Virus record (IMG/VR): IMGVR_UViG_2541047888_000001
DNA from: a virus
Lineage: Duplodnaviria; Heunggongvirae; Uroviricota; Caudoviricetes
Strand: one strand, 5' to 3'
DNA length: 20,430 nucleotides
Numbering within the stretch: the stretch's first letter is position 1; each line of letters starts with the position of its first letter. The notes under the pieces were generated by a model that did no database searches, had not been told where the DNA came from, and worked only from the letters and a program-made list of their open reading frames with translations. Positions 3,166 to 20,430 of this stretch are shown here, piece after piece. Both the position numbers and the translations under genes were made by a program.

Positions 3166-3251
3166 GGCGTATTCGACATTTGACGCAAATAAAACTCTCG
3201 CCATTCGTTGCAGGAGGGGGTTATTGCGTCATTAGTACAGGATATTAATAA

Positions 3252-3886: not shown

Positions 3887-3898
3887 CGGAGACTGAAA

Positions 3899-4907: not shown

Positions 4908-5968
4908 CCGCCCAGAAGAAGACATTTTCACTGGCTGGTATGTCGCCAAAATCCAGCAATATGACAGCAAAGTCAGGCATTAATACAGCAGATACAAGCA
5001 AAGTTTATCATTTGCTGGTGGTAGGAGCGGATGCCTTAACTATGTCAGAAATTACGGTCGATGGTGTTAGCGTTGAGAAGGTCAGCGGCTGCGCCAGAGA
5101 ATTTCTGGTCGTAGATGGCTTTCTCTGCTCGCGTAGTGACTCCACAAAAACCTTCGTCCACGCGCGTGACGTTAACGAAATGAGCGCGATGTACTGTGCT
5201 TCTGGTTCTTCCAATAGTGAGTTTTCGGAGTCCATAAAAAAGAGCTTGCCGTTATGCGGCAACACGGTTTATGGTTATAAGGCACCTCATAAAACGGGTG
5301 CCGGGATTGGCGTCCTGGTAAATCGAATGGCGACATATGACGCGCCGAGCGTCTTTTTTTATGTCGTAGGTCTGACTCACCCATTTTTTGGGCGTTGGTG
5401 TATAATCCAGCGCCTTTGTCAATCAATGGTGGCTCAGGCAGGGGCTTCTTCGGAAGCGCCGGTATCCATTCGAGCCGGTTACGCCAACCCTGTCTGGGCT
5501 ACCACCAGCGAAATTGGCGTTTCCGGTGGTAGCGTTACATGCTATCGAATGGAGGCTGCCACATGCTGGCTACTACCCCTACCCAAAAACCGCAATTTAT
5601 CTGGATTATCGCCGCAGTTCGCCGCGATTGCCCGACAATTACCGCCAAAATTCATCATATTGCTGCCGAGTCTGAACGCGATGCTCGCCGTTCTCTGGTG
5701 CGCGATCACGTCTGCTTTTTTGCTGGTCGTATCCGCATGGAGGTGGCACATGATTAAAACCTACGATGTGCATATGGATCCCCTCGAACGCACAAGCCAG
5801 ATCATCACACTGACAGAAGTGATTAACGACATTCTGGTGAGCAACTCTCCCTCACGAGACGAAAGACTGAAGGCGTTACTCGCGATATTGGATCTCGCCG
5901 TTCGTGACGTTCATTTCCTGCTGGAAGGTGGCGAAATGCCAGTAAAAACGGGGGAAACCAATGAATAA
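4901..5968 (+). CDS. long ORF of uncertain validity (355 aa frame); N-terminal ~220 codons possibly real, remainder overprinted by the icd-like gene and containing an internal start at 5750
   Basis: GGAGG RBS 8 nt before ATG 4901 and coupling to the upstream gene argue for a real start; the segment overlapping 5563-5757 translates to an implausible peptide in this frame; no in-frame stop until 5968. Confidence 0.3.
5563..5757 (+). CDS. Icd-like (host cell division inhibitor-like) small protein
   Basis: 64 aa from ATG 5563 with GGAGG 7 nt upstream; [24 protein letters not shown]...[22 protein letters not shown] resembles Icd-like proteins of P4-type elements; stop overlaps the next start (ATGA). 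Confidence 0.6.
   Translation: MLATTPTQKPQFIWIIAAVRRDCPTITAKIHHIAAESERDARRSLVRDHVCFFAGRIRMEVAHD
5750..5968 (+). CDS. small hypothetical protein (72 aa)
   Basis: ATG 5750 preceded by GGAGGTGGCAC, nearly the same RBS context as the icd-like gene; coupled to the next ORF. Confidence 0.45.
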   Translation: MIKTYDVHMDPLERTSQIITLTEVINDILVSNSPSRDERLKALLAILDLAVRDVHFLLEGGEMPVKTGETNE

Positions 5969-6155
5969 CTCAATTAATACCCCTCGCCTTACGTCCGCAC
6001 TTCAATTAATCGAGCAAGCAGCGGCTGTCCTGGTTGCTGTCAGTCTTTCGGCTGAAGAAATGGACGCTACTGATGTCGTGGATGCGATTAAAGCGTGCTC
6101 ATCTTTGGTTAACGATGCCCGTGCAGAGCTGGTAATTCTTGGGGGTGAAAAATGA
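5961..6155 (+). CDS. small hypothetical protein (64 aa)
   Basis: Overlapping start/stop with neighbours; GGGGGAA RBS. Confidence 0.5.
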   Translation: MNNSINTPRLTSALQLIEQAAAVLVAVSLSAEEMDATDVVDAIKACSSLVNDARAELVILGGEK

Positions 6156-6415
6156 ATATCAACTTAATTTATCGTCATCCGTGTGAGCTGGAAATTGAAT
6201 CATTGCTGAGCCGTGAAGAGCCATATCCAGACACATTCACTCTTGCAGATCGCACGACTGAACGGCTTACCAGAGCGCGCACAGGTCTGGTTCATGTGAT
6301 GAATGAGATTCTTCCATCGGTGGGAGGGGAACAGGCGACAGTAATCACTAGCTGGCTACAAAAAGTTACCTCTCTGATAGATATCAGTTTAATCGATGCG
6401 GAGAGTGCGAAATGA
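6152..6415 (+). CDS. small hypothetical protein (87 aa)
   Basis: ATGA overlap with the previous stop; GGGGGTG RBS. Confidence 0.5.
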   Translation: MNINLIYRHPCELEIESLLSREEPYPDTFTLADRTTERLTRARTGLVHVMNEILPSVGGEQATVITSWLQKVTSLIDISLIDAESAK

Positions 6416-6633
6416 CCAACATCCAGCTCATTGAAGCGCAATGTCGCATCGAACAGGTTCAGACTGTTTTAGGGTTCTGGCTTGAAGGGGCCAGCCCCAG
6501 CAACAGAGACAAGTTAATGATTGGCGCGGTTATGTCACTGCTCAATGGCGTACCAGAAGCTATTCAGGAAGCAGACGAATTGTTGGGCAAATATGAGTTA
6601 CAGAATCATTCAGGCGAGGCGAAACATGAATAA
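6412..6633 (+). CDS. small hypothetical protein (73 aa)
   Basis: ATGA overlap with the previous ORF; same-strand operon. Confidence 0.5.
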   Translation: MTNIQLIEAQCRIEQVQTVLGFWLEGASPSNRDKLMIGAVMSLLNGVPEAIQEADELLGKYELQNHSGEAKHE

Positions 6634-7228
6634 TTTCTTAACTTTCCATGCAGAAGCAACGCCTGACGGCGTAAACATCATGCACCGCAGCAACGATGGC
6701 ATGACAGAACGCGTTGAGACCGTCTCATATATTGATGCCGTAAATCGTCTGGATGCCGGGGATTATGACGATAAACCAGATGAAGGCATGTCAATACATC
6801 TCGCTATAGCCGATGGCGGCAACCAGGGATATTTCGATTACACATCACAGCATAACGTCATTATGTGGAGATGGCTGATCGCAACAGTATTCATGCTGGA
6901 AATGAGAGAGGAAAACGGCACTGTCAGCATCATTGATGATACTGGCAATCCTTCCGAAGTGGCTGTTTATTCCAACGGCATCGTCGCCATGCCGCTGTAT
7001 CCAGTAGCAGAGCGCCTCGCTATGGCAAACAACATTGAGGGCGCGATGATAGAACGTTTTGGCATCGAGTCTGGCACAGAACGCGCCATCATTTTCTACA
7101 GAGCCATGATGGATGTGGAACAAGGAGCACTGACTCCATTTGGTCGTGAAACGCTTGCTGAACTTCACAACAGCTTTATAGCTGAACTGAATGAAAACGG
7201 CATGCCAGCGGAACCAGTGACGCACTGA
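6626..7228 (+). CDS. hypothetical protein (~200 aa from ATG 6626; the ORF track extends to 6521)
   Basis: ATG 6626 overlaps the upstream stop and has GAGG upstream; the N-terminal extension from 6521 looks non-protein-like. Confidence 0.55.
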   Translation: MNNFLTFHAEATPDGVNIMHRSNDGMTERVETVSYIDAVNRLDAGDYDDKPDEGMSIHLAIADGGNQGYFDYTSQHNVIMWRWLIATVFMLEMREENGTVSIIDDTGNPSEVAVYSNGIVAMPLYPVAERLAMANNIEGAMIERFGIESGTERAIIFYRAMMDVEQGALTPFGRETLAELHNSFIAELNENGMPAEPVTH

Positions 7229-7238
7229 GGATGGAGCC

Positions 7239-7580
7239 ATGATTACTAAAAATTTCCGACTGAATGCGCTGGCAAATAAGTATGCGTCGGCACTGTATAA
7301 CCACATTACCTCCACCAGCGGCGGGGACTATTTCATGGTTGATGCGGACGGCGAGGCCGTACGTGTGGAAATCGTCAATGGAGTAAAAGGCGTTCGCAGC
7401 CTGATCGATAGCTACACACTGGCAGCCATGAAAGTGTTCTACCCGCAGTGGGAAACCGTGGGGATCGAGCTTCTTGAGCGTTGCGTCACTAAGGACGGAT
7501 TGACTGACGTCGGGCGTGAGATATGGCAAAGCATGGTTAATGACATGGGCGCAACTGTAGCGGGAGGTTCTCATGCGTGA
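7239..7580 (+). CDS. hypothetical protein (113 aa)
   Basis: GAGGATGGAG RBS; coupled to the next gene. Confidence 0.55.
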   Translation: MITKNFRLNALANKYASALYNHITSTSGGDYFMVDADGEAVRVEIVNGVKGVRSLIDSYTLAAMKVFYPQWETVGIELLERCVTKDGLTDVGREIWQSMVNDMGATVAGGSHA

Positions 7581-7944
7581 AAATGCAGAAATGGCGCTTA
7601 GCTCCGCAATCGGAGAGCAGGTGGCAAAGATTGCTGGTGCTGTGTGGATTCATAACCTTCATTCTACTGGTGAAGAGAAAATGGCAATTCAGACGCCAGA
7701 GGGACGCACCATTACTACATCTCTGAAGCCGTCAGATGTTTGTGATCTGATTTGCGCATTCATGTACCCAGCAATGAGGACTGTCCACGGCGATAAGTGG
7801 AAACTTGCGACAACCGCTGAATTTGATATGTGGCTAAACAATGATGGCATGCTGACTGATTACGGAATAACCAAGTGGCAGATGCTGGTTAGCCATATCG
7901 CAAACGCTATAGACCACGTGGGGTACGGTGATGCGAAACATTGA
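7573..7944 (+). CDS. hypothetical protein (123 aa)
   Basis: GGGAGG RBS; stop overlaps the primase start. Confidence 0.55.
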   Translation: MRENAEMALSSAIGEQVAKIAGAVWIHNLHSTGEEKMAIQTPEGRTITTSLKPSDVCDLICAFMYPAMRTVHGDKWKLATTAEFDMWLNNDGMLTDYGITKWQMLVSHIANAIDHVGYGDAKH

Positions 7945-10687
7945 TCTTATCCGTCAGGTTATCAGTGCGTCTGAAAACAACTGGCCTCATGTGCTGGGCT
8001 GCCTGAACATAAATGTCCCTGACTCTCCGCGCCGTCATGCTCCCTGCCCTGCATGTGGGGGCAAAGATCGATTCCGGTTCGATGACAACGGGCGCGGTAG
8101 CTTCATCTGTAATCAGTGCGGCGCTGGTGATGGGCTGGATTTAATTAAACGCGTAAATAACTGCGACACAACAGAGGCGGCGCTTCTTGCCGCTGATGTT
8201 CTGGGTATTGATTACCGGACAACGGAAACACCAGAAGCCACCAGCCAGAAACGGGAACAACTGGAAACCGAGCGCCAGCGACGCGAACAGGAGCGCCTGA
8301 AAAGGGCAGAGAAGGACGAACAACAAAGACGGGATACGTTTTCCCGTCAGTTTGATGACATGCGCAGAAAGGCTGTAAACGGCAAATCTGATTATCTGGT
8401 TGCGAAAGGGGTAGGTGATTTTACATTCCCCGTGTTGCCCGATGGATCTCTGTTGCTGGCGCTGGTGGATAAATCCGGCGCAGTCACAGCAGCACAGACT
8501 ATTACCTCACATGGTGAAAAAAGACTCCTGAGAGGTTCAGCAAAGCGGGGGGCATATCACGCCATAAACGCGCCAGAAACAACACAGAGCATCTTAATTA
8601 CAGAAGGGCTGGCAACGGCATTATCTGCCCATTTAATTCGTCCAGAGGCGCTGACAGTGGCGGCGATTGATGCCGGGAACCTGTTATATGTCGCCCAGGT
8701 ACTGCGGGATAAATTTCCTTCAGCACAAATCATCATTGCTGCGGATAACGACCACAGCGAAGGAAGACAAAACACGGGGAGAATAGCAGCAGAAAAAGCA
8801 GCTTTATCTGTTTCTGGATGGGTGGCATTACCCCAGACAGATCACAAAGCAGACTGGAATGATTACCACCAAAAACACGGCATTAAATGCGCCACAGAAG
8901 CGTTCAATAAGTCAATGTACCAACCACAGGGTAATGGCGTGAAACAGGAGCCACAGACCATTGAGGGAAGCGATTTTAAGGTTATGGATACCGACCCACT
9001 GAAACCAAGAATAGAAAGCCGCGAGGATGGTATTTATTGGGTATCTCCGAGAGCTGACAGCCAGAGTGGAGAAATCATCAATAACGAAAGCTGGTTATGT
9101 TCTCCGTTAAGCGTTATCGGTACTGGCAGAGACGATAAAGACCAGTATCTCATTCTTCGCTGGCTGTCGTTTGGTTCTGAAACGCCGACAACCGCTGCCA
9201 TTCCACTGGCTGATATTGGTGAACGTGAAGGATGGCGCACACTTAAAGCTGGTGGGGTAAATGTCACGACCAAAAGCAGCCTCAGAGCAATACTGGCAGA
9301 CTGGCTACAACGCAGTGGCTCTCGTGAATTGTGGCGTGTTGCTCATGCCACTGGCTGGCAATGCGGAGCGTACATCATGCCTGATGGGGAAATCATCGGA
9401 ACACCTGAAAATCCTGTGCTGTTCAGCGGGAGAAGCTCAGCCGCAGCCGGATATACCGTCTCAGGGAGCGCGAAAAGCTGGCGTGATAACGTGGCGCGTC
9501 TGGCCTTTGGTAACTATTCAATGATGACCGGGATCGGCGCAGCACTGGCAGCGCCATTGATTGGGCTGGTGGGCGCTGACGGGTTCGGCATTCATTTCTA
9601 TGAGCAGTCGAGCGCAGGTAAGACCACCACGGCAAACGTGGCGAGCAGCTTATACGGCAACCCTGATTTACTGCGGCTGACGTGGTACGGAACCGCGCTG
9701 GGGCTGGCAAATGAGGCCGCCGCCCACAATGACGGACTAATGCCGCTTGATGAAGTTGGTCAGGGCGCTGATCCTGTCAGCGTTTCACAGTCTGCCTATG
9801 CGTTATTTAACGGTGTAGGGAAACTGCAAGGCGCTAAAGATGGTGGAAACCGGGATCTAAAACGCTGGCGTACAGTGGCAATCAGCACCGGAGAAATGGA
9901 TTTAGAAACATTTATCGCTACTTCCGGGCGAAAAACCAAAGCCGGGCAACTGGTGCGACTGCTGAATATTCCGTTGAGTAAAGCAGTACGCTTTCACGAT
10001 TACCAGAACGGAAAACAGCACGCAGACGCACTGAAAGACGCTTACCAGCATCACCACGGCGCGTCCGGGCGTGAGTGGATTAAATGGCTGGCAGACCACC
10101 AGCAACAGGCTATTAAAACCGTTCGTGACTGCGAAAGCAGATGGAGAAGCCTGATCCCATCCGATTATGGTGAGCAGGTTCACCGTGTAGCCGCGCGATT
10201 TGCCATTCTGGAGGCCGCATTGTTGTTAGGCGAGGTTGTAACAGGCTGGGATGCTCAGACATGCCGTGATGCGATACAGCACAGCTATAACGCATGGTTG
10301 CGCGAGTTCGGCACAGGTAACAAAGAGCATCAGCAGATTATTGAACAAACGGAGGCATTTCTTAATGCCTATGGGCTTAGCCGTTTTGCACCATTTCCAT
10401 ACAGCCCGGCAGATTTGCCCATCAAAGATTTAGCCGGATACCGTCAGCGTGGAGAACATGACGAAAGCCCAATGATTTTCTACACATTCCCGGCCACATT
10501 TGAAAAGGAGATCGCATGTGGTTTCAACGCAAAACAGTTTGCTGAAGTGTTGAAAAAAGCCGGGATGCTAACCCCACCAAACAGCGGTCGTGGATACCAA
10601 AGAAAATCACCACGTATTCAGGGACGACAAATAAACGTTTATGTACTCAATTACCAGCCAGGAGATTATAACTCATCTGAAGAATGA
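7931..10687 (+). CDS. P4 alpha-like DNA primase/helicase (N-terminal Cys4 zinc ribbon, Toprim domain, C-terminal P-loop NTPase)
   Basis: ~918 aa; CPACGG...CNQCG zinc ribbon (about nt 8045-8120); Toprim signatures ILITEGLATA and AADNDHSEG; P-loop-like YEQSSAGKTT; start could be GTG 7928 or ATG 7931. Confidence 0.85.
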   Translation: MRNIDLIRQVISASENNWPHVLGCLNINVPDSPRRHAPCPACGGKDRFRFDDNGRGSFICNQCGAGDGLDLIKRVNNCDTTEAALLAADVLGIDYRTTETPEATSQKREQLETERQRREQERLKRAEKDEQQRRDTFSRQFDDMRRKAVNGKSDYLVAKGVGDFTFPVLPDGSLLLALVDKSGAVTAAQTITSHGEKRLLRGSAKRGAYHAINAPETTQSILITEGLATALSAHLIRPEALTVAAIDAGNLLYVAQVLRDKFPSAQIIIAADNDHSEGRQNTGRIAAEKAALSVSGWVALPQTDHKADWNDYHQKHGIKCATEAFNKSMYQPQGNGVKQEPQTIEGSDFKVMDTDPLKPRIESREDGIYWVSPRADSQSGEIINNESWLCSPLSVIGTGRDDKDQYLILRWLSFGSETPTTAAIPLADIGEREGWRTLKAGGVNVTTKSSLRAILADWLQRSGSRELWRVAHATGWQCGAYIMPDGEIIGTPENPVLFSGRSSAAAGYTVSGSAKSWRDNVARLAFGNYSMMTGIGAALAAPLIGLVGADGFGIHFYEQSSAGKTTTANVASSLYGNPDLLRLTWYGTALGLANEAAAHNDGLMPLDEVGQGADPVSVSQSAYALFNGVGKLQGAKDGGNRDLKRWRTVAISTGEMDLETFIATSGRKTKAGQLVRLLNIPLSKAVRFHDYQNGKQHADALKDAYQHHHGASGREWIKWLADHQQQAIKTVRDCESRWRSLIPSDYGEQVHRVAARFAILEAALLLGEVVTGWDAQTCRDAIQHSYNAWLREFGTGNKEHQQIIEQTEAFLNAYGLSRFAPFPYSPADLPIKDLAGYRQRGEHDESPMIFYTFPATFEKEIACGFNAKQFAEVLKKAGMLTPPNSGRGYQRKSPRIQGRQINVYVLNYQPGDYNSSEE

Positions 10688-10712
10688 GCTTCTTCATGTG
10701 CGTAGAAAAGGT

Positions 10713-10823
10713 GTTGGTTCAGTTGGTTCAGTTGGTTCAATTTGTAAAGAGTATTGTTTTATAAGGATTTTATTCTTTTTATTGAACCAACACTGAACCA
10801 ACAACACGGTATTTTGAACCAAC
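10713..10823. repeat. Iteron-like array A: 3 tandem GTTGGTTCA, AT-rich spacer, 3 inverted TGAACCAAC
   Basis: Perfect 9-mers at 10713-10721, 10722-10730, 10731-10739 and inverted copies at 10783-10791, 10794-10802, 10815-10823, separated by ~43 bp of AT-rich DNA; directly downstream of the primase gene. Confidence 0.7.
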
Positions 10824-10875
10824 ACAATGTGACTGAATTGATGCGCACAACACCTGGCTGGCATCAGAGAGTGTT

Positions 10876-10949
10876 TTACGAGACTTTCGTAAAATCCTGT
10901 GTACAAGGGCGTGACGTTTTTGAAAGTGAGCACTACGAAATTTTCGTAG
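10876..10949. promoter_or_regulatory. Two palindromic operator-like sites TACGA-N5-TCGTA
   Basis: TTACGAGACTTTCGTAA (10876-10892) and CTACGAAATTTTCGTAG (10933-10949); identical half-sites and spacing, ~57 bp apart. Confidence 0.4.
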
Positions 10950-11143
10950 TTCAGAAAACAGCCTCTGAGAAGTTGTTATGCCTGTTCAGCAAACCATCCG
11001 CATAGCTGATCGCGAATCAAATTACCAATGGAGCCAGAAGCAAGGGCAGAACTGAAAAGCGCCTGCCGTGAAGAGTAATGCGACACCATAAATATAGTTT
11101 TTAGAGTCCATAAAAAACCTGTCAAAACCTGACACACAGAACG

Positions 11144-11177
11144 ATGCCACCAGCTACTGAGCGGTGGCATTTTTTTG
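11144..11177 (+). terminator. Rho-independent terminator-like hairpin
   Basis: ATGCCACC-(11 nt loop)-GGTGGCAT followed by a T run (TTTTTT at 11171-11176). Confidence 0.6.
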
Positions 11178-11271
11178 TGCTATTTGTTTCATATTTTGCA
11201 ATTACGATGATGAATATTGCGATTTGTGAAACTATAATAACTGTTGTTTTATACAGTTCTAAGGGGGCGTT

Positions 11272-11433
11272 ATGGCTATTTCAGTAAAGCCGGTATTGAT
11301 AAGTGAGAAGCAAATGGAAGCGATAAAGAAAATTCAGGAAGAGCAGCGTAAAAAATCAGGAATTGGAGTAGCGCCAACTCTGCATGAAATTGCACGAGGG
11401 TTAATAGATAAGGCGCTGGCAGGCTGTATGTGA
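11272..11433 (+). CDS. small protein (53 aa), possible ribbon-helix-helix DNA-binding protein; not in the supplied ORF track (<60 aa)
   Basis: ATG 11272 preceded by AAGGGGG; TATAAT at 11233-11238 upstream; sequence MAISVKPVLISEKQMEAIKKIQEEQRKKSGIGVAPTLHEIARGLIDKALAGCM has a beta-strand plus two helices pattern; first gene of the downstream operon. Confidence 0.45.
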   Translation: MAISVKPVLISEKQMEAIKKIQEEQRKKSGIGVAPTLHEIARGLIDKALAGCM

Positions 11434-11449
11434 AAATGGATGGCATCGC

Positions 11450-11911
11450 ATGGAACTAAAATTTATTGATAACCCTGTGCGATTACAGGCCTTTCTTAAC
11501 GAGCCAGGCAATACCGAAAATATTGTTGAGCCGGGGCACACGTACTACATCAAGCCTGATGCGGTATATCTCGGCATCTACGAAGGATTAGTGCTGGCTG
11601 GCGTTCATGAAGTGCGTAACTTCTGGCATAGCGTTGTTGAATGCCATGCGGTGTACGACCCCGGATTCCGTGGTGAATATGCACTGCAAGGACATCGATT
11701 ATTCTGCAAATGGCTTCTCGAAAACTCACCATTCCTTAACAGCATCACTATGGTTCCTGACACCACGAAATACGGACGGGCAATTATCCGTTTGCTTGGC
11801 GCTACCCGTGTTGGTCACCTTGATGATGCTTATATCAGATGTGGTAAACCCGTCGGCGTAACGCTTTATCAGTTAACTCGGCAACAATATAAGGAATTCA
11901 GCGAATGTTAA
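11450..11911 (+). CDS. hypothetical protein (153 aa)
   Basis: ORF with GGATGG upstream; stop overlaps the start of the next gene (ATGTTAA); no family recognised. Confidence 0.65.
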   Translation: MELKFIDNPVRLQAFLNEPGNTENIVEPGHTYYIKPDAVYLGIYEGLVLAGVHEVRNFWHSVVECHAVYDPGFRGEYALQGHRLFCKWLLENSPFLNSITMVPDTTKYGRAIIRLLGATRVGHLDDAYIRCGKPVGVTLYQLTRQQYKEFSEC

Positions 11912-12582
11912 TTACCCATATAGCTCATAAACATCTCAATCGTGCCGTATACGAAAAAGGCGGTGATGGTGGTGCCTCTAAAGCTCAGGCGAAGGCCCAG
12001 CAGCAGGCAATTGATTTGCAGCGCGAGCAGTGGAATACGGTGATGAATAATCTCAAGCCGTATGCAGAAGTCGGATTGCCTGCTTTACAACAACTACAAG
12101 GACTGATGACTCTGGAAGGGCAGAATAAAGCCGCGAATGATTTCTTTGGTTCTGGTTTATATAAAACACAGGCAGATCAGGCCCGTTATCAGAACCTTGT
12201 CTCAGCAGAAGCTACCGGGGGGCTTGGCTCAACAGCTACCAGTAACCAGTTATCTTCCATTGCGCCCATGCTTTATAACAATTGGCTTAGTGGGCAAATG
12301 CAAAATTATGGAAACCTGCTAAATGTCGGGATGAATGCGGCATCAGGGCAGGCAACGGCAGGGCAAAACTACGCCAATAATACCGGACAACTCTTGCAGG
12401 GGCTTGGCGCTATTCGTGCAGGTCAGGCGCAGCAGCCATCCAGTCTTGCGCGTGGTATTGGTGGGGCAGCATCAGGCGCTTTAGCGGGTGCGCAACTTGG
12501 TTCCGTTGTTCCTGGAATAGGAACTGCGGCCGGCGCTATTGGTGGTGGGCTTATTGGTCTTGTTGGGGGGCTTGGATTCTAA
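11905..12582 (+). CDS. low-complexity Gln/Ala/Gly-rich protein (225 aa) with C-terminal glycine-zipper hydrophobic segment; possible phage ejection-protein-like (size comparable to P22 gp7)
   Basis: Translationally coupled at both ends; C-terminus GAASGALAGAQLGSVVPGIGTAAGAIGGGLIGLVGGLGF; the ejection-protein link is an inference from size, order and composition only. Confidence 0.7.
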   Translation: MLITHIAHKHLNRAVYEKGGDGGASKAQAKAQQQAIDLQREQWNTVMNNLKPYAEVGLPALQQLQGLMTLEGQNKAANDFFGSGLYKTQADQARYQNLVSAEATGGLGSTATSNQLSSIAPMLYNNWLSGQMQNYGNLLNVGMNAASGQATAGQNYANNTGQLLQGLGAIRAGQAQQPSSLARGIGGAASGALAGAQLGSVVPGIGTAAGAIGGGLIGLVGGLGF

Positions 12583-14003
12583 TGGCGACATGGCAACTTG
12601 GCGGGCTGCCTAGCATGGCACCGCAAAATGATAATGCTCCTCGTTCTTCCGTTCCTCAGCCTGTGCAGTATCAGCAGCAGCCAAACGTAGGTTTAATGGC
12701 GCTACAGGGGCTAAGAGGCGTTGCTGAGATTAATCAGCAGGCACGTCAACAACAGCGTAAAGCAGAGTTTCAGAAAGCATATGCCGGGGCTTTTGAGTCT
12801 GGAGACAGAAACAAAATGCGCAGTCTTATTTCTGAGTATCCAGAAGAATTTGAAAGCGTTCAGAAAGGGATGGGCTTTATTGATGACGACCAGAGAAATT
12901 CTATTGGTCATCTTGCGACTAGTGCTCAAATCGCATCTTCGCTCGGAACTGGGGCATTTGGAAAATTCATAGCAGATAACGAAGATGAAATGCGTCGCTT
13001 GGGAATTTCTCCTGAGTCTGTTGCCGAAATGCATGTTAATGATCCACAGGGGTTCCAGCGGCTTGCTGGTAGTATGGCACTGTTTTCTCTCGGTCATGAG
13101 AAGTATTTCGATATCAAAGATCAAATGGAAGGTCGGGATATTGAGCGTGGCAAGTTGGCAGAAACAATCCGCAGCAATCAGGCTGGCGAAGCACTTCAGG
13201 CGAGAGGGCAGGATATTAGCCGAGCAAATGCGTTAACGTCAGCATATGCACCAACAGCAGCAATGCAGAATTACAATCAGTACGCTCAAATGTTAAAGGC
13301 GGATCCAGAGGGGGCGGCGGCATTTGCGGCAGCGGCTGGAATTAATACAAACGCCAAAAAATTAATGAGTGTTAGAGAAAACGATGATGGCACTGTCACA
13401 AAATACTACACAGACGGAAGTGAAGAGCAGGGAAAACTAAACCAGCCAATATCTGGAGATGGGTTTCGTCCAATAGCTTTGCCAACAGCCCAAAAGATCA
13501 TGGAAAAGTCGCCAGAAGGGGCTAAAAAAGCTGCTGGATTTGCATACAGGGTTAGGGATGCTCTTGATTCAATAGATACACTGAAAGACCAGCTTAGCCC
13601 ACAGCGAGTGGCGATCATTAATAATGCTTTGGGTAATGGGACGCTGGCTAACTTAACGCTCAGCCCAACAGAACAGCAATACGTTGTTAATGCTAATGAC
13701 GCAATAATGGCAATACTCCGTCAGGAAACAGGGGCAGCCATCGTACCTGCTGAAATGTCAAAATATTATCAAATGTATTTCCCTCAGCCTGGCGACTCCA
13801 CAAAAACCATTGATACCAAGCGCCGGAAGATGGAAAACCAGTTCAATTCGCTGAAAGCTGCTTCTGGTCGAGCTTATGATGCTTTGCGGGTTATTTCAGC
13901 AGTTGACAGAGGAACTTCTTCTTCGTCGCAGACATTGCCGCAATCTGAGCAGGTATCACAGCCAGCAGCCAGCAGTAACTTTTCTTCACTATGGGGTGAT
14001 TAA
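12582..14003 (+). CDS. hydrophilic Gln/Ala-rich protein (473 aa); possible ejection-protein-like (size comparable to P22 gp20)
   Basis: TAATG coupling at both ends; long ORF with protein-like composition; no catalytic motif recognised. Confidence 0.75.
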   Translation: MATWQLGGLPSMAPQNDNAPRSSVPQPVQYQQQPNVGLMALQGLRGVAEINQQARQQQRKAEFQKAYAGAFESGDRNKMRSLISEYPEEFESVQKGMGFIDDDQRNSIGHLATSAQIASSLGTGAFGKFIADNEDEMRRLGISPESVAEMHVNDPQGFQRLAGSMALFSLGHEKYFDIKDQMEGRDIERGKLAETIRSNQAGEALQARGQDISRANALTSAYAPTAAMQNYNQYAQMLKADPEGAAAFAAAAGINTNAKKLMSVRENDDGTVTKYYTDGSEEQGKLNQPISGDGFRPIALPTAQKIMEKSPEGAKKAAGFAYRVRDALDSIDTLKDQLSPQRVAIINNALGNGTLANLTLSPTEQQYVVNANDAIMAILRQETGAAIVPAEMSKYYQMYFPQPGDSTKTIDTKRRKMENQFNSLKAASGRAYDALRVISAVDRGTSSSSQTLPQSEQVSQPAASSNFSSLWGD

Positions 14004-16108
14004 TGGCTAAAGCATGGAAAGATGTTATCGCCTCTCCACAGTATCAGGCGTTAGCACCAGAACAAAAAGCGCAGGCTCAGGAGCAATACTTCAATGAAGT
14101 CGTGGCCTCGCAAGCCGGAGAAAGTGTAGAGCAGGCTAAGCAGGCTTTTTATGCTGCCTATCCACTACCATCAACGAATGAAATAGACCGATCCCAATCA
14201 GCAACTCAAAATATTCAACATACATCATCTGATAATTCTCTTGCGTCAGGGTATGCAAAGTTAGCTACTCAGCAAAGAGAGGGGCTTGAGCGTTCAGCAG
14301 AACAGGGAGCCAGTCTTGGGGCTGCGATGCGCGATGCTATAACAGGCGAAAGCCGAATGACTCCAGAGATGGAGAGACTGCAAAATGTCGACCTTGCCCC
14401 AGAGTTAACCTCACTCAGCATGGATGCTCTAAAAGCTCGATGGTCTCAACTTTTCGGCTCTGACGCATCTCAGGAAAAGATTCTTCAGAGCATGGGAGCG
14501 AAATTAAGGCAGGATGAGAAGGGTAACACTATCGTTTCCCTGCCATCCGGTGATTATGCTCTGAACAAGCCGGGTTTATCGCCGCAAGACGTGGCATCGT
14601 TTCTGGCTAATGCGCTGGCGTTTACACCAGCGGGCAGGGCTGGAACGGTGCTTGGTGCCATAGGAAAATCAGCAGCTACAGATTTAGCACTACAGGGAGC
14701 CACTAGCCTTGCTGGTGGAGAAGATATTGATCCGTTACAAACGGTAATTTCTGCTGGCATTGGTGGTATTGGTAAGGGGCTGGAAAATACAGCGAGTGCG
14801 GTTTCGAGGGCTGTTCGTGGTGATATGTCGCCTGAAGCAAAGGCTGCTGTCGACTTTGCATCGGAAAGAAATCTGCCGTTAATGACCAGTGACATGCTAA
14901 AAGATAAAACCTTTATGCAGAGTCAGGCTCAGACATTAGGCGAAAGAGTTCCTTTTTTTGGAACCGGTAAGAATCGGCTGAATCAACAACAAGCACGAGA
15001 AAATTTAGTCAGAACATTTAGCGATGGTCTGGGTGGCATTTCTGATAAACAGCTTTATGAATCTGCGACTAAAGGGCAACAAAAATTCATTGAGGCAGCA
15101 GGAAAGCGATATAACCGCATAATTGACGCTATGGGGGATACCCCTGTCGATCTCTCAAACACGGTAAAAGCTATCGACAATCAGATTGCCGTGTTAAGCC
15201 GCCCGGGCAAATCTCAGGATAGAGCCGCGGTAAAAGTCTTGCAGCAATTTAAAGACGATATCACCAGCGGACCAAATGACCTGCGTCTGGCGAGGGAAAA
15301 CAGAACCGATCTTCGAAAGCGATTTATGGCGTCATCTGACACTGTTGATAAAGATACGCTCCAGAAAGCCAGCGATATTATCTACAAGGCATATACGGCG
15401 GATATGAAAAAAGCCGTAGCCAAAAATCTTGGAGCAGACGAAGCCATTAATATGGCAAGGGTTGATCGCTCATGGTCTAAATTTAATGACATGATGGGAA
15501 GAACGCGCGTTCAAAAGGCAATAGCCAGCGGCAAGGCCACGCCTGAGGATGTAACAAAACTCGTTTTTAGCCAAAACCCATCAGAACGTTCTCAGCTTTA
15601 CAGGCTTCTGGATGACAATGGTAGGCAAAACGCACGAGCAGCCATAGTTCAGAATGCTGTAGATAAGGCGACTGATCCGTCTGGAAATATCAGTGTTGAG
15701 AAGTTTATTAATGCGTTACACCGGAACAGGAAGCAATCAGCAACTTTCTTTAAAGGCGTACATGGAAAGGAACTGGACGGCGTTATTAAATACCTCAACG
15801 ATACAAGACACGCGGCAAAAGCGAACGTTCAAAACTTAAATGGTCAGCAGCTTTATGGTTTGTTAGTTGGTGGTGGCATCATAAACGCAGCAGTATTAGC
15901 GGGGATGCTAAAAACGGCTGCGTTTGTTGTTCCTGCTGCTGGTGCCGTAGGCGGAGCAGCGAAGGCATACGAAAGCCCTGTTATACGAAATGCCTTGTTA
16001 CGTCTGGCAAATACGCCAAAAGGTAGCACAGCATATGACAGAGCGATCAGTACGGTCACACAATCGCTCACCAGAGTCGCACAGGCATCACAAAAAGAAG
16101 CTCAATAA
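14003..16108 (+). CDS. large Gln/Ala-rich protein (701 aa) with C-terminal hydrophobic Gly/Ala segment; possible ejection-protein-like (comparable to P22 gp16)
   Basis: TAATG-coupled to the upstream gene; C-terminal LYGLLVGGGIINAAVLAGMLKTAAFVVPAAGAVGGAAKAY putative membrane-interacting segment. Confidence 0.75.
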   Translation: MAKAWKDVIASPQYQALAPEQKAQAQEQYFNEVVASQAGESVEQAKQAFYAAYPLPSTNEIDRSQSATQNIQHTSSDNSLASGYAKLATQQREGLERSAEQGASLGAAMRDAITGESRMTPEMERLQNVDLAPELTSLSMDALKARWSQLFGSDASQEKILQSMGAKLRQDEKGNTIVSLPSGDYALNKPGLSPQDVASFLANALAFTPAGRAGTVLGAIGKSAATDLALQGATSLAGGEDIDPLQTVISAGIGGIGKGLENTASAVSRAVRGDMSPEAKAAVDFASERNLPLMTSDMLKDKTFMQSQAQTLGERVPFFGTGKNRLNQQQARENLVRTFSDGLGGISDKQLYESATKGQQKFIEAAGKRYNRIIDAMGDTPVDLSNTVKAIDNQIAVLSRPGKSQDRAAVKVLQQFKDDITSGPNDLRLARENRTDLRKRFMASSDTVDKDTLQKASDIIYKAYTADMKKAVAKNLGADEAINMARVDRSWSKFNDMMGRTRVQKAIASGKATPEDVTKLVFSQNPSERSQLYRLLDDNGRQNARAAIVQNAVDKATDPSGNISVEKFINALHRNRKQSATFFKGVHGKELDGVIKYLNDTRHAAKANVQNLNGQQLYGLLVGGGIINAAVLAGMLKTAAFVVPAAGAVGGAAKAYESPVIRNALLRLANTPKGSTAYDRAISTVTQSLTRVAQASQKEAQ

Positions 16109-16127
16109 CTGGTTAGCCATGGATGGC

Positions 16128-16742
16128 TTAGATATCTCTGCTGTCTCCATTAGGAAATAAAAGATAATATGGATTTGCCTTTCTTGCTCTCCTTGCTTCA
16201 CCTGGATACCTGTTAGTCAGTAGCTTGCATAATGAGCAGAGAACAACACTCAAGAAAATTCCGAATGAGAAGATCAATATCTCACCAAAAATCAATGGCG
16301 ATATTAAATTTTCAGGATTTAATGATAAGTCAATGTTAAAAACATATTGAGCAATACCAGTAAGTATCAATAATATAATCCCTATGGAATACATTGCTGT
16401 TTCCCAAACATCAGACAGTCTATTTTTGAATTGTTCGCTGGAGTAGTAGTTTGTTATAAAGTCAGAAAAATCACTCTCATATGCATCATCTTTAGGTGAT
16501 GTTAGAAATCCTCTGTCTCTCCATACCTTCTCCCAATTAGTCGATTCTTTTTTTAAGGAAAAATAAATATGTATTGCCAAAAGGATAGCCAAAATTGGTG
16601 TTAGCTCTAAAAAATAGAATGTTATGGAATAAATAATACTGCCATGTTCAAACTCATCTGGGACTATCATGTATGCACAAAAATAAATTGAAAAGTACAC
16701 CATGCAGATAGTTAGCAATTCTTTAGTATCTTTTCTGCTCAC
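16128..16742 (-). CDS. AT-rich integral membrane protein (204 aa, ~4 predicted TM helices), unknown function
   Basis: GTG start preceded by AAGGGGG on the minus strand; four hydrophobic stretches (e.g. LLTICMVYFSIYFCAYMIV, IIYSITFYFLELTPILAILLAIHIYF); markedly lower GC than flanking genes; convergent with the 701 aa gene. Confidence 0.7.
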   Translation of the reverse strand: MSRKDTKELLTICMVYFSIYFCAYMIVPDEFEHGSIIYSITFYFLELTPILAILLAIHIYFSLKKESTNWEKVWRDRGFLTSPKDDAYESDFSDFITNYYSSEQFKNRLSDVWETAMYSIGIILLILTGIAQYVFNIDLSLNPENLISPLIFGEILIFSFGIFLSVVLCSLCKLLTNRYPGEARRARKANPYYLLFPNGDSRDI

Positions 16743-16932
16743 ACCAACCCCCTTTAGCGTTGTTTAGAATGGCAATCATCATATATCCAAGACATGGCAT
16801 TTGGTACATAGCTTGGGTCGGGATTTCAAATCCGCCCCCGTTGATGGGGTCGTTACAGTACGCGCATATCCGCTTTATGTGAAACAGGAAGATTTTTCTG
16901 ATATCACTGCCACAGCAAAACACCAATTTCGA

Positions 16933-17232
16933 GACAAGTACGCGCGCGAGGGGTATCAGTTGCAAAATTTTTTGCAGCTGCGTCCGACCAGTACGCACAC
17001 GATGGCGGGGAGCAGCATAAAACTGTTCTCTACATAGACAGAGTGGTGGTGATGTGTTGATTATCGGCGTATATGCGCACAGGACGCGCTATGACGATGT
17101 TTTATGCGGGTACACCAATCACATGTATCTGATGTGATAAATCGTGTTACATGACATCTCATGTTGTGCTGGTGGTTATCACGACGTTCTGAATCTGGCC
17201 TTTGCCTGATATTTTGCGACAAGTACGCGCGC
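16933..17232. repeat. 16 bp direct repeat GACAAGTACGCGCGCG (two copies) within the long non-coding region
   Basis: Copies at 16933-16948 and 17217-17232; palindrome TGCAAAATTTTTTGCA at 16962-16977 lies between them. Confidence 0.4.
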
Positions 17233-17383
17233 GTAGCATCGAAATTATCGGATGGCGTATGCTGCTGGCAATATGAAGACCGATAGTATTAACCGAAAAG
17301 CGATTAAGGAGTGCCAACTTTTCAGTAGAGAAACTAGCCAGCACAGGGAAATGTAGAAATTACCCAATTAATAGGTAAAAGTT

Positions 17384-17500
17384 ATTGACACACCCTGTAG
17401 TGGATAACGATATGAATAAAAACCACATATAGTGGTTTTTCGTTAGTGATGATAGTATCTATGTTAGTTTCCTAAGTAACTGTGCATTGACATGTGGATA
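17384..17500. promoter_or_regulatory. Duplicated TTGACA + DnaA-box-like (TGTGGATAA / AGTGGATAA) elements flanking a hairpin, upstream of the Abi gene
   Basis: TTGACA 17384-17389 with AGTGGATAA 17398-17406; TTGACA 17486-17491 with TGTGGATAA 17492-17500 (reverse complement of the DnaA box TTATCCACA); hairpin AAAAACCAC-ATATA-GTGGTTTTT at 17417-17439. Confidence 0.35.
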
Positions 17501-17612
17501 ACTTCGGATAGAGTTACAATCAACTGAGCCCGGCCCCCTGGCTTTATCTTGTCTTAGATGAGAAATTGTTATGGCCGGGCCTTCTTGTATCTGGAGGTAG
17601 GAAACCTTTTGT

Positions 17613-18575
17613 ATGGCTGTTCCGGTTAAGGTTCATAAAGAATATGATGAACTTGTCGATTTATTGCTGTCTCGGGGTATGGATGTGCCAGATCGCGAAC
17701 ATGCTATCAAGAAAATCTCACAAGTAGGCTACTACCGATTATCAGGCTTTTGGTACCCCTGCCGAATCCCCCATATAACAACAGACAATATTAGAACCAG
17801 ACTCGATCAGGTTCGTCCAGGTACTAATTTTCGCGCAGTATATGACCTCTATTTATTCGATAAAAATCTGCGTTTGCAGATGATGAATGCGTTAGAACGC
17901 ATTGAGGTTTATGTTCGGTCAGTTATTGCTCATGAGCTTGGTAAGATATCTCCTTTAGCATATCTTGATGACTCGCTAATAAATCCAAAACACTTTAGAC
18001 CACGTTCCCATGGTCGCCCAAGCGCCAGAGAAGAATGGATAAATAAACATAATGCCGAGATTGCTAAAAGTCGCGAAGACTTTATCAAATGGCATGAAAA
18101 CAAGTACGAAGGTCTTCCTTTCTGGGTGGTTATTGAAGTGTGGGACTTCGGCTTAATGTCAAAGTATTATGCGATGCTAAAAGACAGCTATCGCAACAGG
18201 ATACTATCTAGGCTAGGGATAGCGGCAGGCAATGGAGCTATCTTCCAAAACTGGCTTAGCGCAATGAATGTGCTAAGGAATCGGTGCGCTCACCATTCAC
18301 GCATCTGGAACAAGGTCAACGAACCAAGATTAATGCCTTTGCCAAATGAGCCGTACTTTGAACAATTAAATATGAATGATGATGCGTACGAAAGAATGTA
18401 CGGAATGATCGCTGTGTTATGGTTTTTAGTGAAAAAAATTGGACCGGGATCTGACTGGATAAAAAAAGTTGCCAACCTTGTAGATAACAAGCCTAACTTA
18501 CCAGGATGTAACCTGACAGCCATGGGATTACCTGATAATAACGGTTTCCCAAGGCATTTATTTGATATTGAATAA
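17613..18575 (+). CDS. Abi_2 family (AbiD/AbiF-like) abortive-infection protein, predicted HEPN domain
   Basis: 320 aa; GGAGG RBS; family-typical motifs ISQVGYYRLSGFWYP, FDKNLR, PFWVVIEVWDFG and the HEPN Rx4H motif RNRCAHH (about nt 18276-18296). Confidence 0.8.
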   Translation: MAVPVKVHKEYDELVDLLLSRGMDVPDREHAIKKISQVGYYRLSGFWYPCRIPHITTDNIRTRLDQVRPGTNFRAVYDLYLFDKNLRLQMMNALERIEVYVRSVIAHELGKISPLAYLDDSLINPKHFRPRSHGRPSAREEWINKHNAEIAKSREDFIKWHENKYEGLPFWVVIEVWDFGLMSKYYAMLKDSYRNRILSRLGIAAGNGAIFQNWLSAMNVLRNRCAHHSRIWNKVNEPRLMPLPNEPYFEQLNMNDDAYERMYGMIAVLWFLVKKIGPGSDWIKKVANLVDNKPNLPGCNLTAMGLPDNNGFPRHLFDIE

Positions 18576-18576
18576 A

Positions 18577-19032
18577 TTATAGCGATGGCGCTGAATGTAG
18601 CGCCACTGATAACTTTTCAGCATTGCTTCCCTGACGCTTCCACGCGCTATAAATATCTTTATCCCATGCCTTACCAGCTTTTGTTTGATAGCCTGCTTCA
18701 TTGATCCGTTCAGCTATCACGCGCCCATTATCAAATCCCTGTCGGATGGTATCGGCAATGATCTTTATAACTGCCGTTTCGTTATATGGCTTTGGTGGGA
18801 TGTTCGGCTTTCCGGCAATAAGCGACGCAGCGGCTTTTTCCATGCGCTCCACCAGCCCAAGCATTCGTGAATCAATAGACTTTTCCGGCTGTCCCAGCTT
18901 CATGCGAATCGCATCAACAAGCCAGGAGGTTTTATCCCCTCCAGAAGCGAGAACAGACCGATTAAACTCATCCTGCAATTCAGATGGGATGCGGAACGCG
19001 ACCAGATTAGATTTGCTCATTGCAAAGACCAT
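18577..19032 (-). CDS. ribbon-helix-helix domain protein (151 aa), putative transcriptional regulator
   Basis: N-terminus SNLVAFRIPSELQDEFNRSVLASGGDKTSWLVDAIRMKL fits the RHH (CopG/Arc/MetJ) pattern; weak RBS; convergent with and abutting the Abi gene. Confidence 0.6.
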   Translation of the reverse strand: MVFAMSKSNLVAFRIPSELQDEFNRSVLASGGDKTSWLVDAIRMKLGQPEKSIDSRMLGLVERMEKAAASLIAGKPNIPPKPYNETAVIKIIADTIRQGFDNGRVIAERINEAGYQTKAGKAWDKDIYSAWKRQGSNAEKLSVALHSAPSL

Positions 19033-19050
19033 ATCAGTGAGTAATATCCA

Positions 19051-19067
19051 TACAGTATACCACTGTA
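19051..19067. promoter_or_regulatory. Palindromic operator-like site TACAGT-N5-ACTGTA upstream of the minus-strand RHH gene
   Basis: Read directly from the sequence; lies ~20-35 bp upstream of the RHH gene start; followed by a CACTGT(T)ATA direct repeat. Confidence 0.35.
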
Positions 19068-19134
19068 TAACACTGTTATACGCTCAAATATTAGCCAGAA
19101 AATAACGGACCAATCACAAAGCTATCGCTGTGTT

Positions 19135-19255
19135 GTTGGTTCAGAGCTGGGCTGTGTTGGTTCAAAATGAGTTGATGTTGGTTCAATATTTCAGAAAAAA
19201 CACAATAAAAACAACGATCTTTACAAATTGAACCAACTGAACCAACTGAACAAAC
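19135..19255. repeat. Iteron-like array B: 3 spaced GTTGGTTCA, AT-rich spacer, 3 tandem TGAACCAAC (inverted relative to array A)
   Basis: GTTGGTTCA at 19135-19143, 19156-19164, 19177-19185; TGAACCAAC at 19229-19237, 19238-19246 and degenerate TGAACAAAC at 19247-19255; the reverse complement aligns with array A including the spacer start ATTTGTAAAGA. Confidence 0.7.
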
Positions 19256-19291
19256 ACCTTTTTGCTTATCTATATAATCTGAGAGGCAGAA

Positions 19292-19579
19292 ATGATAAGG
19301 GACAGGAAAGCTGAAGAACTGGAGTCAAAAGGGCTATACCGGAGAGCTGCCGCACGATGGGCAGAAGTCATGATGCTGGCAGATGGCGATAAAGAACGTG
19401 AACATGCAGCAAACAGACGCTCTGAATGTATCCGTAAGGCGGCACGCCCACCAGCAACTACAGACAGATTCGGAGATTTAAGACAGGCAGTTAAGCGGAC
19501 TCATTCGGCTCTTGGTATGGATGAGGAAGCGAGAGGGTACTTCAGGCGTTATCGCGATAAAGATTGCCAGAGACAGTAA
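19292..19579 (+). CDS. PerC-family transcriptional regulator-like protein (95 aa)
   Basis: N-terminus MIRDRKAEELESKGLYRRAAARWAEVMM resembles the PerC/Pch family pattern (AE.LE.KGL.RRAA.RW.EVM); GAGAGG RBS. Confidence 0.6.
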   Translation: MIRDRKAEELESKGLYRRAAARWAEVMMLADGDKEREHAANRRSECIRKAARPPATTDRFGDLRQAVKRTHSALGMDEEARGYFRRYRDKDCQRQ

Positions 19580-19920
19580 TGCTCTCTCTGTTTTGGCAAA
19601 TTACCCCTCACTTTGAAGGGATCGGAGCTATAAAAATGGTGTTATCCGGCTTCCTGCATTGCAGGTTTTCGAAAGAATCAATGGGTTAGGTCATCGTGCA
19701 AATTTGCACTCTGCCAGCCAACGCAATTTCTCGTTGGCGGAAATATCAGGTATTTACTGAACGAACGGTCTACCCGCCTGTTCAACTACCAGTTGTACAT
19801 GGCTGCTTTATGTGCAAATGGTGGTGAGAGAAAATTGTTTGGGGGTACTTTTGGGGGTGTCTCCAAAGATGTAACGTGAAAATATCTTTATATATCAATG
19901 TATTTTTATTGTTTGTTTTG

Positions 19921-19939
19921 TTCCTATTATCGCACCATT
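19921..19939. other. attR of island 1 / attL of the tandem second island (partial tRNA-Thr 3' end copy)
   Basis: TCCTATTATCGCACCATTC matches tRNA 3' end 1428-1447 with a single G deletion; followed by a sequence homologous to the island-1 int-proximal region. Confidence 0.6.
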
Positions 19940-20091
19940 CTAACGTCTCCCCAAGTCTACTCAAGTATTTAAAAACCTCTTATAATCAGTATATTAATGC
20001 CCCTTTTAGTCTTTTGACGTCTATTTAAGTACCCCAAACTCTACAAGCAATTGAGGGGATTTGCTGTTCAGTTTAGTGGAGATACCCCCAA

Positions 20092-20430
20092 GTGAAACTC
20101 AATGCCCGTCAAATAGACACTGCCAAGCCAAAAGAGAAGGCTTACAAGTTGGCTGATGGTGGTGGTCTGTACCTCCTGGTAAAACCTGGTGGAGGAGAAT
20201 ATTGGCGTCTCAAGTATCGTGTAGCTGGTAAAGAGAAGCTGTTAGCACTAGGTGTGTATCCTGAGGTCACCTTAGCTGATGCTCCTGCAAAACTTGAAGA
20301 AGCTAAAAGAGGTATCTCTGGGGGAATCGATCTGATGGAAGTGAAGCGAGAGGAAAAGATTGCCCGGGAAACGCAGTTAAACAACACCTTCAAAGATATT
20401 GCCCTTGAGTGGCACAGTAACAAATTATAA
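20092..20430 (+). CDS. int: second P4-type integrase, N-terminal portion (GTG start); in-frame TAA at codon 113 at the window edge, possibly disrupted
   Basis: 112 aa, ~92% identical by eye to the island-1 integrase N-terminus; island 1 reads AGC AAA TTA AAA AAA TGG here, island 2 reads AAC AAA TTA TAA. Confidence 0.6.
   Translation: MKLNARQIDTAKPKEKAYKLADGGGLYLLVKPGGGEYWRLKYRVAGKEKLLALGVYPEVTLADAPAKLEEAKRGISGGIDLMEVKREEKIARETQLNNTFKDIALEWHSNKL

Follow-up and report, generated by a model that had tools for sequence, protein, structure and literature searches.

An ejection-protein operon in a capsid-less island

The stretch of DNA analyzed here, IMG/VR virus record IMGVR_UViG_2541047888_000001 (20,430 nucleotides; hereafter the window), carries a capsid-less phage satellite of P22-like phages, a phage-inducible chromosomal island (PICI) of the EcCIMP1 family that is integrated at thrW. 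EcCIMP1 itself, from E. coli MP1, was described by Pick, Stadel and Raivio (ISME J 2025; PMC11773190), with the P22-like phage Kapi1 as its helper. Four overlapping genes in the right half of the window, all transcribed rightwards (plus strand), code for proteins of 153, 225, 473 and 701 amino acids, and these are true homologues of the products of P22 genes 14, 7, 20 and 16, arranged in the P22 order. The initial annotation, made by eye, had likened the last three to a P22-like ejection-protein module but could not verify the homology; Pfam, PHROG, BLASTP and tblastn comparisons now support it strongly.

The gene 14 homologue (11450–11911; 153 aa) matches Pfam DUF2824 (E 1.5e-61) and PHROG 651 (E 1e-66), a family that carries the PHROG label 'head morphogenesis', and its product is 84% identical to Kapi1 gp14 and 23% to P22 gp14. 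The middle of this gene also matches many O157:H7 and O55:H7 chromosomes at 92–98%, where the annotation under the match is just a DUF2824 gene. The gp7 homologue (11905–12582; 225 aa) matches Pfam PF25688, P22_gp7 (E 6.6e-73; 245.8 bits against a cut-off of 28), as well as PHROG 598, and is 56–58% identical to the gp7 proteins of P22 and Kapi1. The gp20 homologue (12582–14003; 473 aa) contains an N-terminal 'injectosome translocase' domain (Inj_translocase, PF16928; residues 34–213, E 4.5e-58, 197 bits against a cut-off of 29.7), matches PHROG 917 over its full length (E 5e-112), and shares 35–38% identity with P22 and Kapi1 gp20 in its N-terminal ~220 residues. The last gene (14003–16108; 701 aa) codes for a homologue of P22 gp16 and Sf6 gp13. 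It has no match in the Pfam copy searched; it matches PHROG 770 (E 8e-161), aligns with P22 gp16 by BLASTP (30% identity over 482 columns, E 3e-52), and by tblastn is 33% identical to Sf6 gp13 over its full length and 67% identical to phage N7, retaining the C-terminal YES..IRN.LLRLANT motif and G532. Sequence searches of the PDB with all four proteins gave no matches, and none was found in NCBIfam for the window proteins.

The four open reading frames (ORFs), their lengths and their stop/start overlaps are exactly as first annotated, with ATGTTAA joining the 153- and 225-aa genes (GCGAATGTTAATTAC) and TAATG joining both the 225- and 473-aa genes (ATTCTAATGGCG) and the 473- and 701-aa genes (GATTAATGGCT). 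The richness in Gln, Ala and Gly that had drawn attention to the trio is likewise present, these residues making up 42%, 29% and 29% of the 225-, 473- and 701-aa proteins, respectively; an average E. coli protein has about 21%. Glycine-zipper segments had been placed at the ends of the first and last of the three. The 225-aa protein does have a Gly-rich, hydrophobic, glycine-zipper-like C-terminal tail (residues 201–225, ...GIGTAAGAIGGGLIGLVGGLGF), but the Gly/Ala-rich hydrophobic segment of the 701-aa protein lies at residues 616–650, about 50 residues short of the C-terminus.

In P22 (NC_002371), genes 14, 7, 20 and 16 code for proteins of 151, 229, 471 and 609 aa in that order, in agreement with the three sizes and the preceding gene 14 given in the initial annotation, and sieA follows on the opposite strand. 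The island genes, the P22 module and the Sf6 gp11–13 genes encode homologous proteins of similar sizes in the same order and with the same stop/start coupling; in both P22 and the island a SieA-like gene lies on the opposite strand just downstream, and synteny with P22 extends over the entire 14-7-20-16-sieA block. The surroundings differ, in that the P22 cassette is part of the late operon, downstream of the genes for coat, portal, head completion and tail needle, whereas the island cassette follows a primase gene and a replication origin, sits behind its own leader and a 53-aa gene with no coat, portal, tail or terminase genes, and is only 23–56% identical to P22. The element had been described as free of capsid, portal and terminase genes, and Pfam and PHROG scans and the annotation of its other ORFs reveal none of these, nor any tail or lysis genes; the ejection-protein cassette comprises the only virion-related genes of the island.

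Mosaic relationships with P22-like phages

Gene-by-gene mosaicism has been described for the P22-like phages (PMC8954989, PMC10883804), and the island cassette displays the same mosaicism. Among the islands, gp14 and gp7 are nearly invariant, and gp20 and gp16 occur in several types: that of the window, that of MP1 (with a gp16 of 906 aa that includes an SLT domain), and a Kapi1-like type in H10407 and EcPF7, in which gp20 and gp16 are 74% and 41% identical to those of Kapi1. The MP1 island and its helper Kapi1 have gp14 proteins that are 83% identical, and gp20 and gp16 proteins that differ in type (26% and 24% identity). Recombination breakpoints are located near residues 70 and 213 of gp20 and near residue 69 of gp16, and the C-terminal half of gp20 is mosaic. 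E. coli 20AR0300 has a complete P22-like prophage with a gp16 that shares 94% identity with the window gp16, alongside gp14, gp7 and gp20 of other types than the window's; this mosaic sharing puts the island genes in the same exchanging pool as functional phage genes.

The difference in type between the gp20 and gp16 proteins of the island and those of Kapi1 would fit a role in which the island proteins poison the helper, mixing with mismatched helper alleles in procapsids such that helper progeny cannot inject and the bacterial population is protected. P22 hybrids with foreign gp16 alone or foreign gp20 alone are indeed non-viable (PMC10883804, text on Table 4), and in other PICIs helper manipulation is the usual task of the module that comes right after the replication genes (PMC11773190, discussion). 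However, Kapi1 titres are unaltered by EcCIMP1 after induction (PMC11773190, Fig 4B, as its text describes), a finding that also disfavours the decoy or interference module suggested in the initial annotation. The island's own transducing particles would be equally disabled, because ejection proteins are loaded before the DNA, and some island alleles are so near to real phage alleles (the 94% of the gp16 above) that they should be compatible with them and not poisonous. We regard poisoning as an unlikely role for the cassette.

Distribution, cassette variants and selection

Using the leader and small ORF (10873–11440) as a probe against 5,426 complete E. coli genomes, we identified the pair in 500. 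The leader is followed by gp14-7-20-16 in 258 genomes and directly by gp20-16 in 217, and the cassette in either form is therefore present behind one conserved leader in 475 of 501 leader-bearing genomes, or ~9% of complete E. coli; the carriers include the pathogens 042 and H10407 and O26 strains. In the shorter cassette, as in the islands of Ec-050, H10407, PK-F-10122 and EcPF7, a 57-aa ORF is followed by gp20 and gp16, with no gp14 or gp7. In ~5% of leader-bearing islands, as in E. coli P21_SE1_04.20, the ejection genes are replaced after the small ORF by a gene for a 223-aa protein with an HEAGH zinc-protease motif. The sampled islands occupy at least two chromosomal sites, thrW and the yicC–yicG interval, and use at least three integrase types, the third of these in insertions near yicG/ligB (EcPF7). 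Three kinds of replication module accompany the cassette: Toprim/DUF927, DUF5906, or none.

A scan of species-representative genomes with a gp20 alignment returned two loci only, one of them in Leclercia. The island of Leclercia adecarboxylata MGG-10dp has the same architecture and the same coupled starts, with a primase that is 68% identical and a small ORF, gp14 and gp7 that are 82–85% identical, and there are no coat, portal or terminase genes within 20 kb. Four extra ORFs (152–329 aa) separate its primase from the small ORF. The protein at the gp16 position is 898 aa long; like the 906-aa SLT protein of MP1, it aligns with P22 gp16 only within a short N-terminal segment, and its alignment to Kapi1 gp16 is weak.

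The dN/dS ratios of island-borne copies are 0.08–0.3 within E. coli and 0.03–0.09 in comparison with Leclercia, where dS is saturated (>1.2), and the ORFs are intact in most of the sampled islands. The cassette is a core module of this island family, the dominant conserved one, and is under purifying selection. These observations bear on the idea that it is inert, being either what deletion or recombination at thrW, the P22 attachment site, has left of a P22-like prophage or a patch of homology for recombination with the helper. Such an origin would fit the contiguity of the block 14-7-20-16-sieA in P22, the tandem elements at thrW that are evident from a second integrase remnant (see below), and the occasional pseudogenes. 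It fits poorly with dN/dS values of 0.03–0.3, with intact ORFs, and with the recurrence of the same leader and cassette elsewhere in the chromosome, beside different integrases and replication modules, and in another genus, Leclercia, for a total of 475 genomes. A prophage remnant at the P22 attachment site was rejected on the grounds of distribution and selection, and an inert cassette of either kind is very improbable. The captured phage fragment that the initial annotation offered as one option is, if taken to be inert, contradicted by the purifying selection and by the retention of the cassette at different sites, with different replication modules and in two genera, and the operon is not confined to intact prophages, as there are ~475 occurrences in an island context.

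Boundaries and gene content of the island

The island spans positions 1428–19931 (~18.5 kb) and has exact direct repeats of TCCTATTATC at both ends. The attL core (1428–1437, plus strand) is inside the 3' end of the tRNA-Thr gene thrW (1369–1444), and the attR core (19922–19931, plus strand) is at the right island end; the core thus occurs twice in exact form in the window, where chance would give 0.08 copies, and the att core reported for EcCIMP1 is identical (PMC11773190). The left end of the window is occupied by proA (1–1254).

From the left, the island genes are organized as integrase, AlpA, an AntA/AntB antirepressor-like gene, small ORFs with isrK and C4, primase, iterons and the ejection operon. 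The integrase (1610–2824, rightwards) is a tyrosine recombinase/integrase according to the annotation of the A34 locus, which is 98% identical, the AlpA-family regulator (3252–3455, rightwards) matches Pfam Phage_AlpA (E 7e-20), and the primase/replicase (7928–10687, rightwards) has zinc ribbon, Toprim and DUF927 matches in Pfam and matches PHROG 1139, DNA primase (E 3e-178). These three genes share one orientation between the att direct repeats, and the size of the island is within the ~10–20 kb range of PICIs. To the right of the ejection operon are, in order, a minus-strand membrane-protein gene, an Abi_2 gene and a PerC gene. The right-end cargo consists of an Abi_2 abortive-infection family protein (17613–18575, rightwards; Pfam), a 151-aa protein without an assigned function (18577–19032, leftwards), and a PerC-family regulator (19292–19579, rightwards; Pfam), whose homologue in EcCIMP1 is reported to be a repressor of LEE. 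The RefSeq annotation of the 98%-identical locus agrees with these assignments, and two of the genes are already named there 'phage DNA ejection protein' and 'injection protein'.

Two RNAs are predicted by Rfam in the left part of the island, isrK (5282–5359, plus strand; 67 bits) and a C4 antisense RNA (5422–5509, plus strand; 79.5 bits), and their arrangement resembles the P1/P7-type immunity regions with icd and ant. A 355-aa 'ash family' ORF (4901–5968) overlaps both RNAs and the pac-like fragment discussed below, and because of these overlaps may not be a genuine protein gene here.

Beyond attR (19932–20430) is the 5' end of a second integrase gene (start at 20092) with ~86% DNA identity to the first, and the junction sequence matches the corresponding MP1 junction at 99.8%; it belongs to a tandem or remnant island at thrW. 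A separately assembled record from E. coli NRZ14408 ('phage_14408_2', NZ_LT599831.1; 19,226 bp) contains a circularly permuted island in which PerC is joined to the integrase. NRZ14408 also has a chromosomal copy of the island, and the permuted record, with the layout expected of an excised circle, is compatible with excision.

The initial annotation had suspected a satellite with P22-like helpers, and this is borne out by EcCIMP1, which is 98% identical over 12.7 kb and is induced and transduced by Kapi1 (PMC11773190). The two islands are at the same site, thrW between proA and yagU, with the same att core and the same order of modules; window positions 1–12742 are 98.4% identical to EcCIMP1, which covers int, AlpA, AntA/B, the primase, the 53-aa gene, gp14 and gp7. 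From inside gp20 rightwards the window has other alleles and other cargo than MP1: the C-terminal half of gp20 is of another type, the 701-aa gp16 has the 906-aa SLT-domain protein as its MP1 counterpart, and the SieA-like and Abi_2 genes are in places where MP1 has other genes. EcCIMP1 excises and circularizes only upon induction of Kapi1; this requires alpA and int, with alpA acting as a master regulator needed for both excision and transfer, and Kapi1 transduces the island at low frequency (PMC11773190).

Replication origin, operon leader and first gene

The probable replication origin (10711–10825) comes directly after the primase gene. It is made up of GTTGGTTCA repeats, three of them iterons spaced by 9 bp and three inverted, arranged around an AT-rich spacer. 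Where the replication gene of an island is of the DUF5906 type, other repeats are present at this position.

Downstream of the origin is the conserved non-coding leader of the ejection operon (10873–11271, plus strand; ~400 nt), which is at least 95% identical between islands with unrelated replication modules upstream. It includes a perfect palindrome, CTACGAAATTTTCGTAG (10926–10942), and a strong intrinsic terminator (11135–11178; fold −26.2 kcal/mol, z −6.2), and after the terminator there is a consensus −10 hexamer, TATAAT (11235–11240), with a weak −35 and then a ribosome-binding site. It is possible that a small RNA ends at the terminator. Exact matches to the leader exist in IMG/VR, and these are not counted as packaging evidence, as the UViG identifiers resemble prophage calls from isolate genomes.

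The first gene of the operon (11272–11433, rightwards) codes for a 53-aa protein, possibly a small DNA-binding protein. Its identity is 87–100% among all E. coli islands sampled, and the Leclercia version is 85% identical; the dN/dS is 0.03. The suggestion in the initial annotation that it is ribbon-helix-helix (RHH)-like was not confirmed: there is no match in Pfam, NCBIfam or PHROG, the AlphaFold model (pLDDT 78) has an extended N-terminus and two helices, and a Foldseek search of the PDB with this model returned nothing.

The SieA-like gene downstream of the operon

A gene coding for a 204-aa SieA-like inner-membrane protein (16128–16742, leftwards) begins 19 bp beyond gp16, in the same position and orientation as sieA in P22. 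A single BLASTP comparison with P22 SieA gives 29% identity (E 8e-8), in an alignment that ends in a shared RYPGEA. The conserved C-terminal motif of SieA proteins is FxRYPxEAxxFNK (PMC10883804); the RYPGEA core, at residues 178–183, aligns with P22 residues 147–152, and the flanking F and FNK are absent. The protein has a weak match to PHROG 7745, 'SieA-like' (E 4e-4), and hydrophobic stretches at residues 8–65, 109–141 and 144–178. Searches of phage genomes with tblastn found nothing, and relatives in a large protein database are restricted to E. coli and Citrobacter; a Citrobacter homologue with 50% identity is encoded by a P22-like prophage at the sieA position, flanked by gp16 and the Arc/Ant region. 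Such a protein would exclude incoming P22-like phages. All of the sieA genes examined previously lay in P22-like prophages (PMC10883804), and here a SieA-like gene is found outside a prophage, in a satellite. In other islands the same slot is occupied by unrelated small membrane proteins of 129–132 aa, and in MP1 by a 232-aa protein.

The initial annotation had also considered superinfection exclusion, which fits this neighbouring gene and fits the ejection proteins less well. Were the ejection proteins themselves to act as an exclusion device or decoy, they would do so inside the uninduced cell against incoming P22-like phages. EcCIMP1 does contribute to the superinfection immunity of Kapi1 lysogens (PMC11773190), and expression of most EcCIMP1 genes has been reported by RNA-seq (PMC12922286), both of which would be in keeping with such a role. 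The adjacent slot, with its SieA-like or other small membrane-protein gene, explains exclusion more simply, and the ejection proteins have no obvious export signal, yet they would have to enter the periplasm. That the islands keep gp14, an assembly factor, and matched pairs of gp20 and gp16 points instead to virion assembly, and we judge it quite improbable that the ejection proteins serve in exclusion.

A P22 pac-like fragment

The left part of the island contains a 107-bp copy of the P22 pac region (5049–5155, minus strand), which is a candidate packaging site. It is 88% identical to P22 nucleotides 4–110, a part of the small-terminase gene 3, starting exactly at the annotated 22-bp pac site; no terminase ORF remains around it. 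The same 107 nucleotides are matched by 117 P22-like phage records, and the matches listed lie in the small-terminase gene. The fragment is retained in all eight islands whose fetched sequence covers the region; Kapi1 and the reduced island of isolate 23 lack it. At 16 of 17 positions the island version of the site, AAGGTTTTTGTGGAGTC, agrees with the published pattern of pseudo-pac sites that are functional for P22 (PMC10996546). We infer that this site would be the means by which a P22-type terminase recognizes the island. Since the site is absent from Kapi1, this phage would be a poor helper, in agreement with the low transfer frequency reported, and the site could thereby explain why transfer by Kapi1 is so low and point to better helpers. 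The paper on EcCIMP1 does not report a pac site (PMC11773190).

Proposed function of the island ejection proteins

The role that we rank first, and which was not among the options in the initial annotation, is that the island ejection proteins are probably loaded into helper capsids as working components of the virion. In this proposal the helper would induce the island, and the operon behind the conserved leader would be expressed; island gp7, gp20 and gp16 would then be loaded into helper procapsids together with island gp14, the close relative of Kapi1 gp14. The island itself is packaged in virions built by a P22-like helper, as experiments have shown for the near-identical EcCIMP1 with Kapi1, and the pac-like fragment would allow packaging by a P22-type terminase. 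Upon infection the proteins would be released and would build a channel through the outer membrane (gp7), the periplasm (gp20) and the inner membrane (gp16), such that particles from island-bearing cells would deliver their DNA through the conduit allele of the island. The most speculative step concerns the plausible benefit, namely access to cells with SieA-type exclusion, including helper lysogens, which would be the recipients of most use to a satellite; the SieA-like gene of the island would in turn exclude incoming P22-like phages.

Several features of P22 are consistent with this role. P22 virions incorporate foreign 7/20/16 blocks, which function there, and gp20 and gp16 must be a matched pair, with gp7 swappable alone (PMC10883804). 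The two island variants, 14-7-20-16 and 20-16 only, closely match this pairing rule. Moreover, mutations that escape SieA fall in the C-terminal portions of gp20 and gp16, and the ejection proteins of HK620 confer partial resistance (PMC10883804).

Other observations weigh against incorporation into helper virions. The cassette is dispensable, as 26 genomes (~5% of leader-bearing islands) have an unrelated HEXXH peptidase in its place, and there are decaying copies, with an internal stop in the gp20 gene of H10407 and a frameshift in one NRZ14408 record. The operon promoter has a weak −35 and a strong terminator upstream of it, and comparison of the leader with the Q/late-promoter region of Kapi1 or the region upstream of the island alpA gives only chance matches of 8–10 nucleotides. 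Ejection proteins enter procapsids ahead of the DNA, and the island thus cannot reserve them for its own particles. Kapi1 has no recognizable sieA, and the exclusion-bypass benefit therefore cannot apply as stated to the one characterized satellite–helper pair. Late expression, virion incorporation and exclusion bypass are all steps that we infer.

A fuller account, in which a satellite family present in ~9% of complete E. coli swaps the ejection proteins of the helper virion for its own matched gp20 and gp16 (with or without gp14 and gp7), bypasses SieA-type blocks to reach helper lysogens, deploys a SieA-like block of its own and borrows the pac site of the helper, is offered tentatively. 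It would, if true, be a manipulation by a satellite of a step of the helper that no characterized satellite is known to touch.

Comparison with other satellites

The existence of this element is not new, as its satellite family has been published and two of its genes are already named by automatic annotation. What we did not find described is the complete P22 14-7-20-16(-sieA) block as the dominant conserved module of a satellite, in ~9% of complete E. coli genomes, together with its purifying selection, its mosaic exchange with helper-type phages and the P22-type pac fragment that accompanies it. The literature searched includes no paper treating satellite-encoded ejection proteins as such, and no description of the combination of ejection proteins and a pac-like site in any satellite. 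The pac-like site and the SieA-like gene are leads for the packaging mechanism of EcCIMP1 and for its superinfection-immunity gene, respectively, and as these islands are common and carry defence and PerC-type cargo, their spread matters for gene flow in E. coli.

The island shares with P4, with the PICIs of the SaPI and EcCICFT073 types and with the capsid-forming PICIs a general plan of integrase, regulator and primase, dependence on helper virions and a short virion-assembly module, but the strategies differ. P4 resizes capsids using Sid and Psu, SaPI and EcCICFT073-type PICIs form small capsids and redirect packaging through Rpp, and capsid-forming PICIs have their own capsid, portal and terminase genes and steal only tails. 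Pfam and PHROG scans of the island ORFs reveal no homologues of sid, psu, delta, rpp, capsid or terminase-subunit genes, and the likeness to P4 is limited to the P4-type primase architecture and the C4 and isrK RNAs. What known satellites hijack is the size of the capsid, the specificity of packaging or the tails. The virion-related cargo here consists of internal ejection proteins and a pac-like site, and a DNA-delivery conduit supplied by the satellite would, if true, add the entry step to this list and draw satellites into the arms race that pits ejection proteins against superinfection-exclusion proteins.

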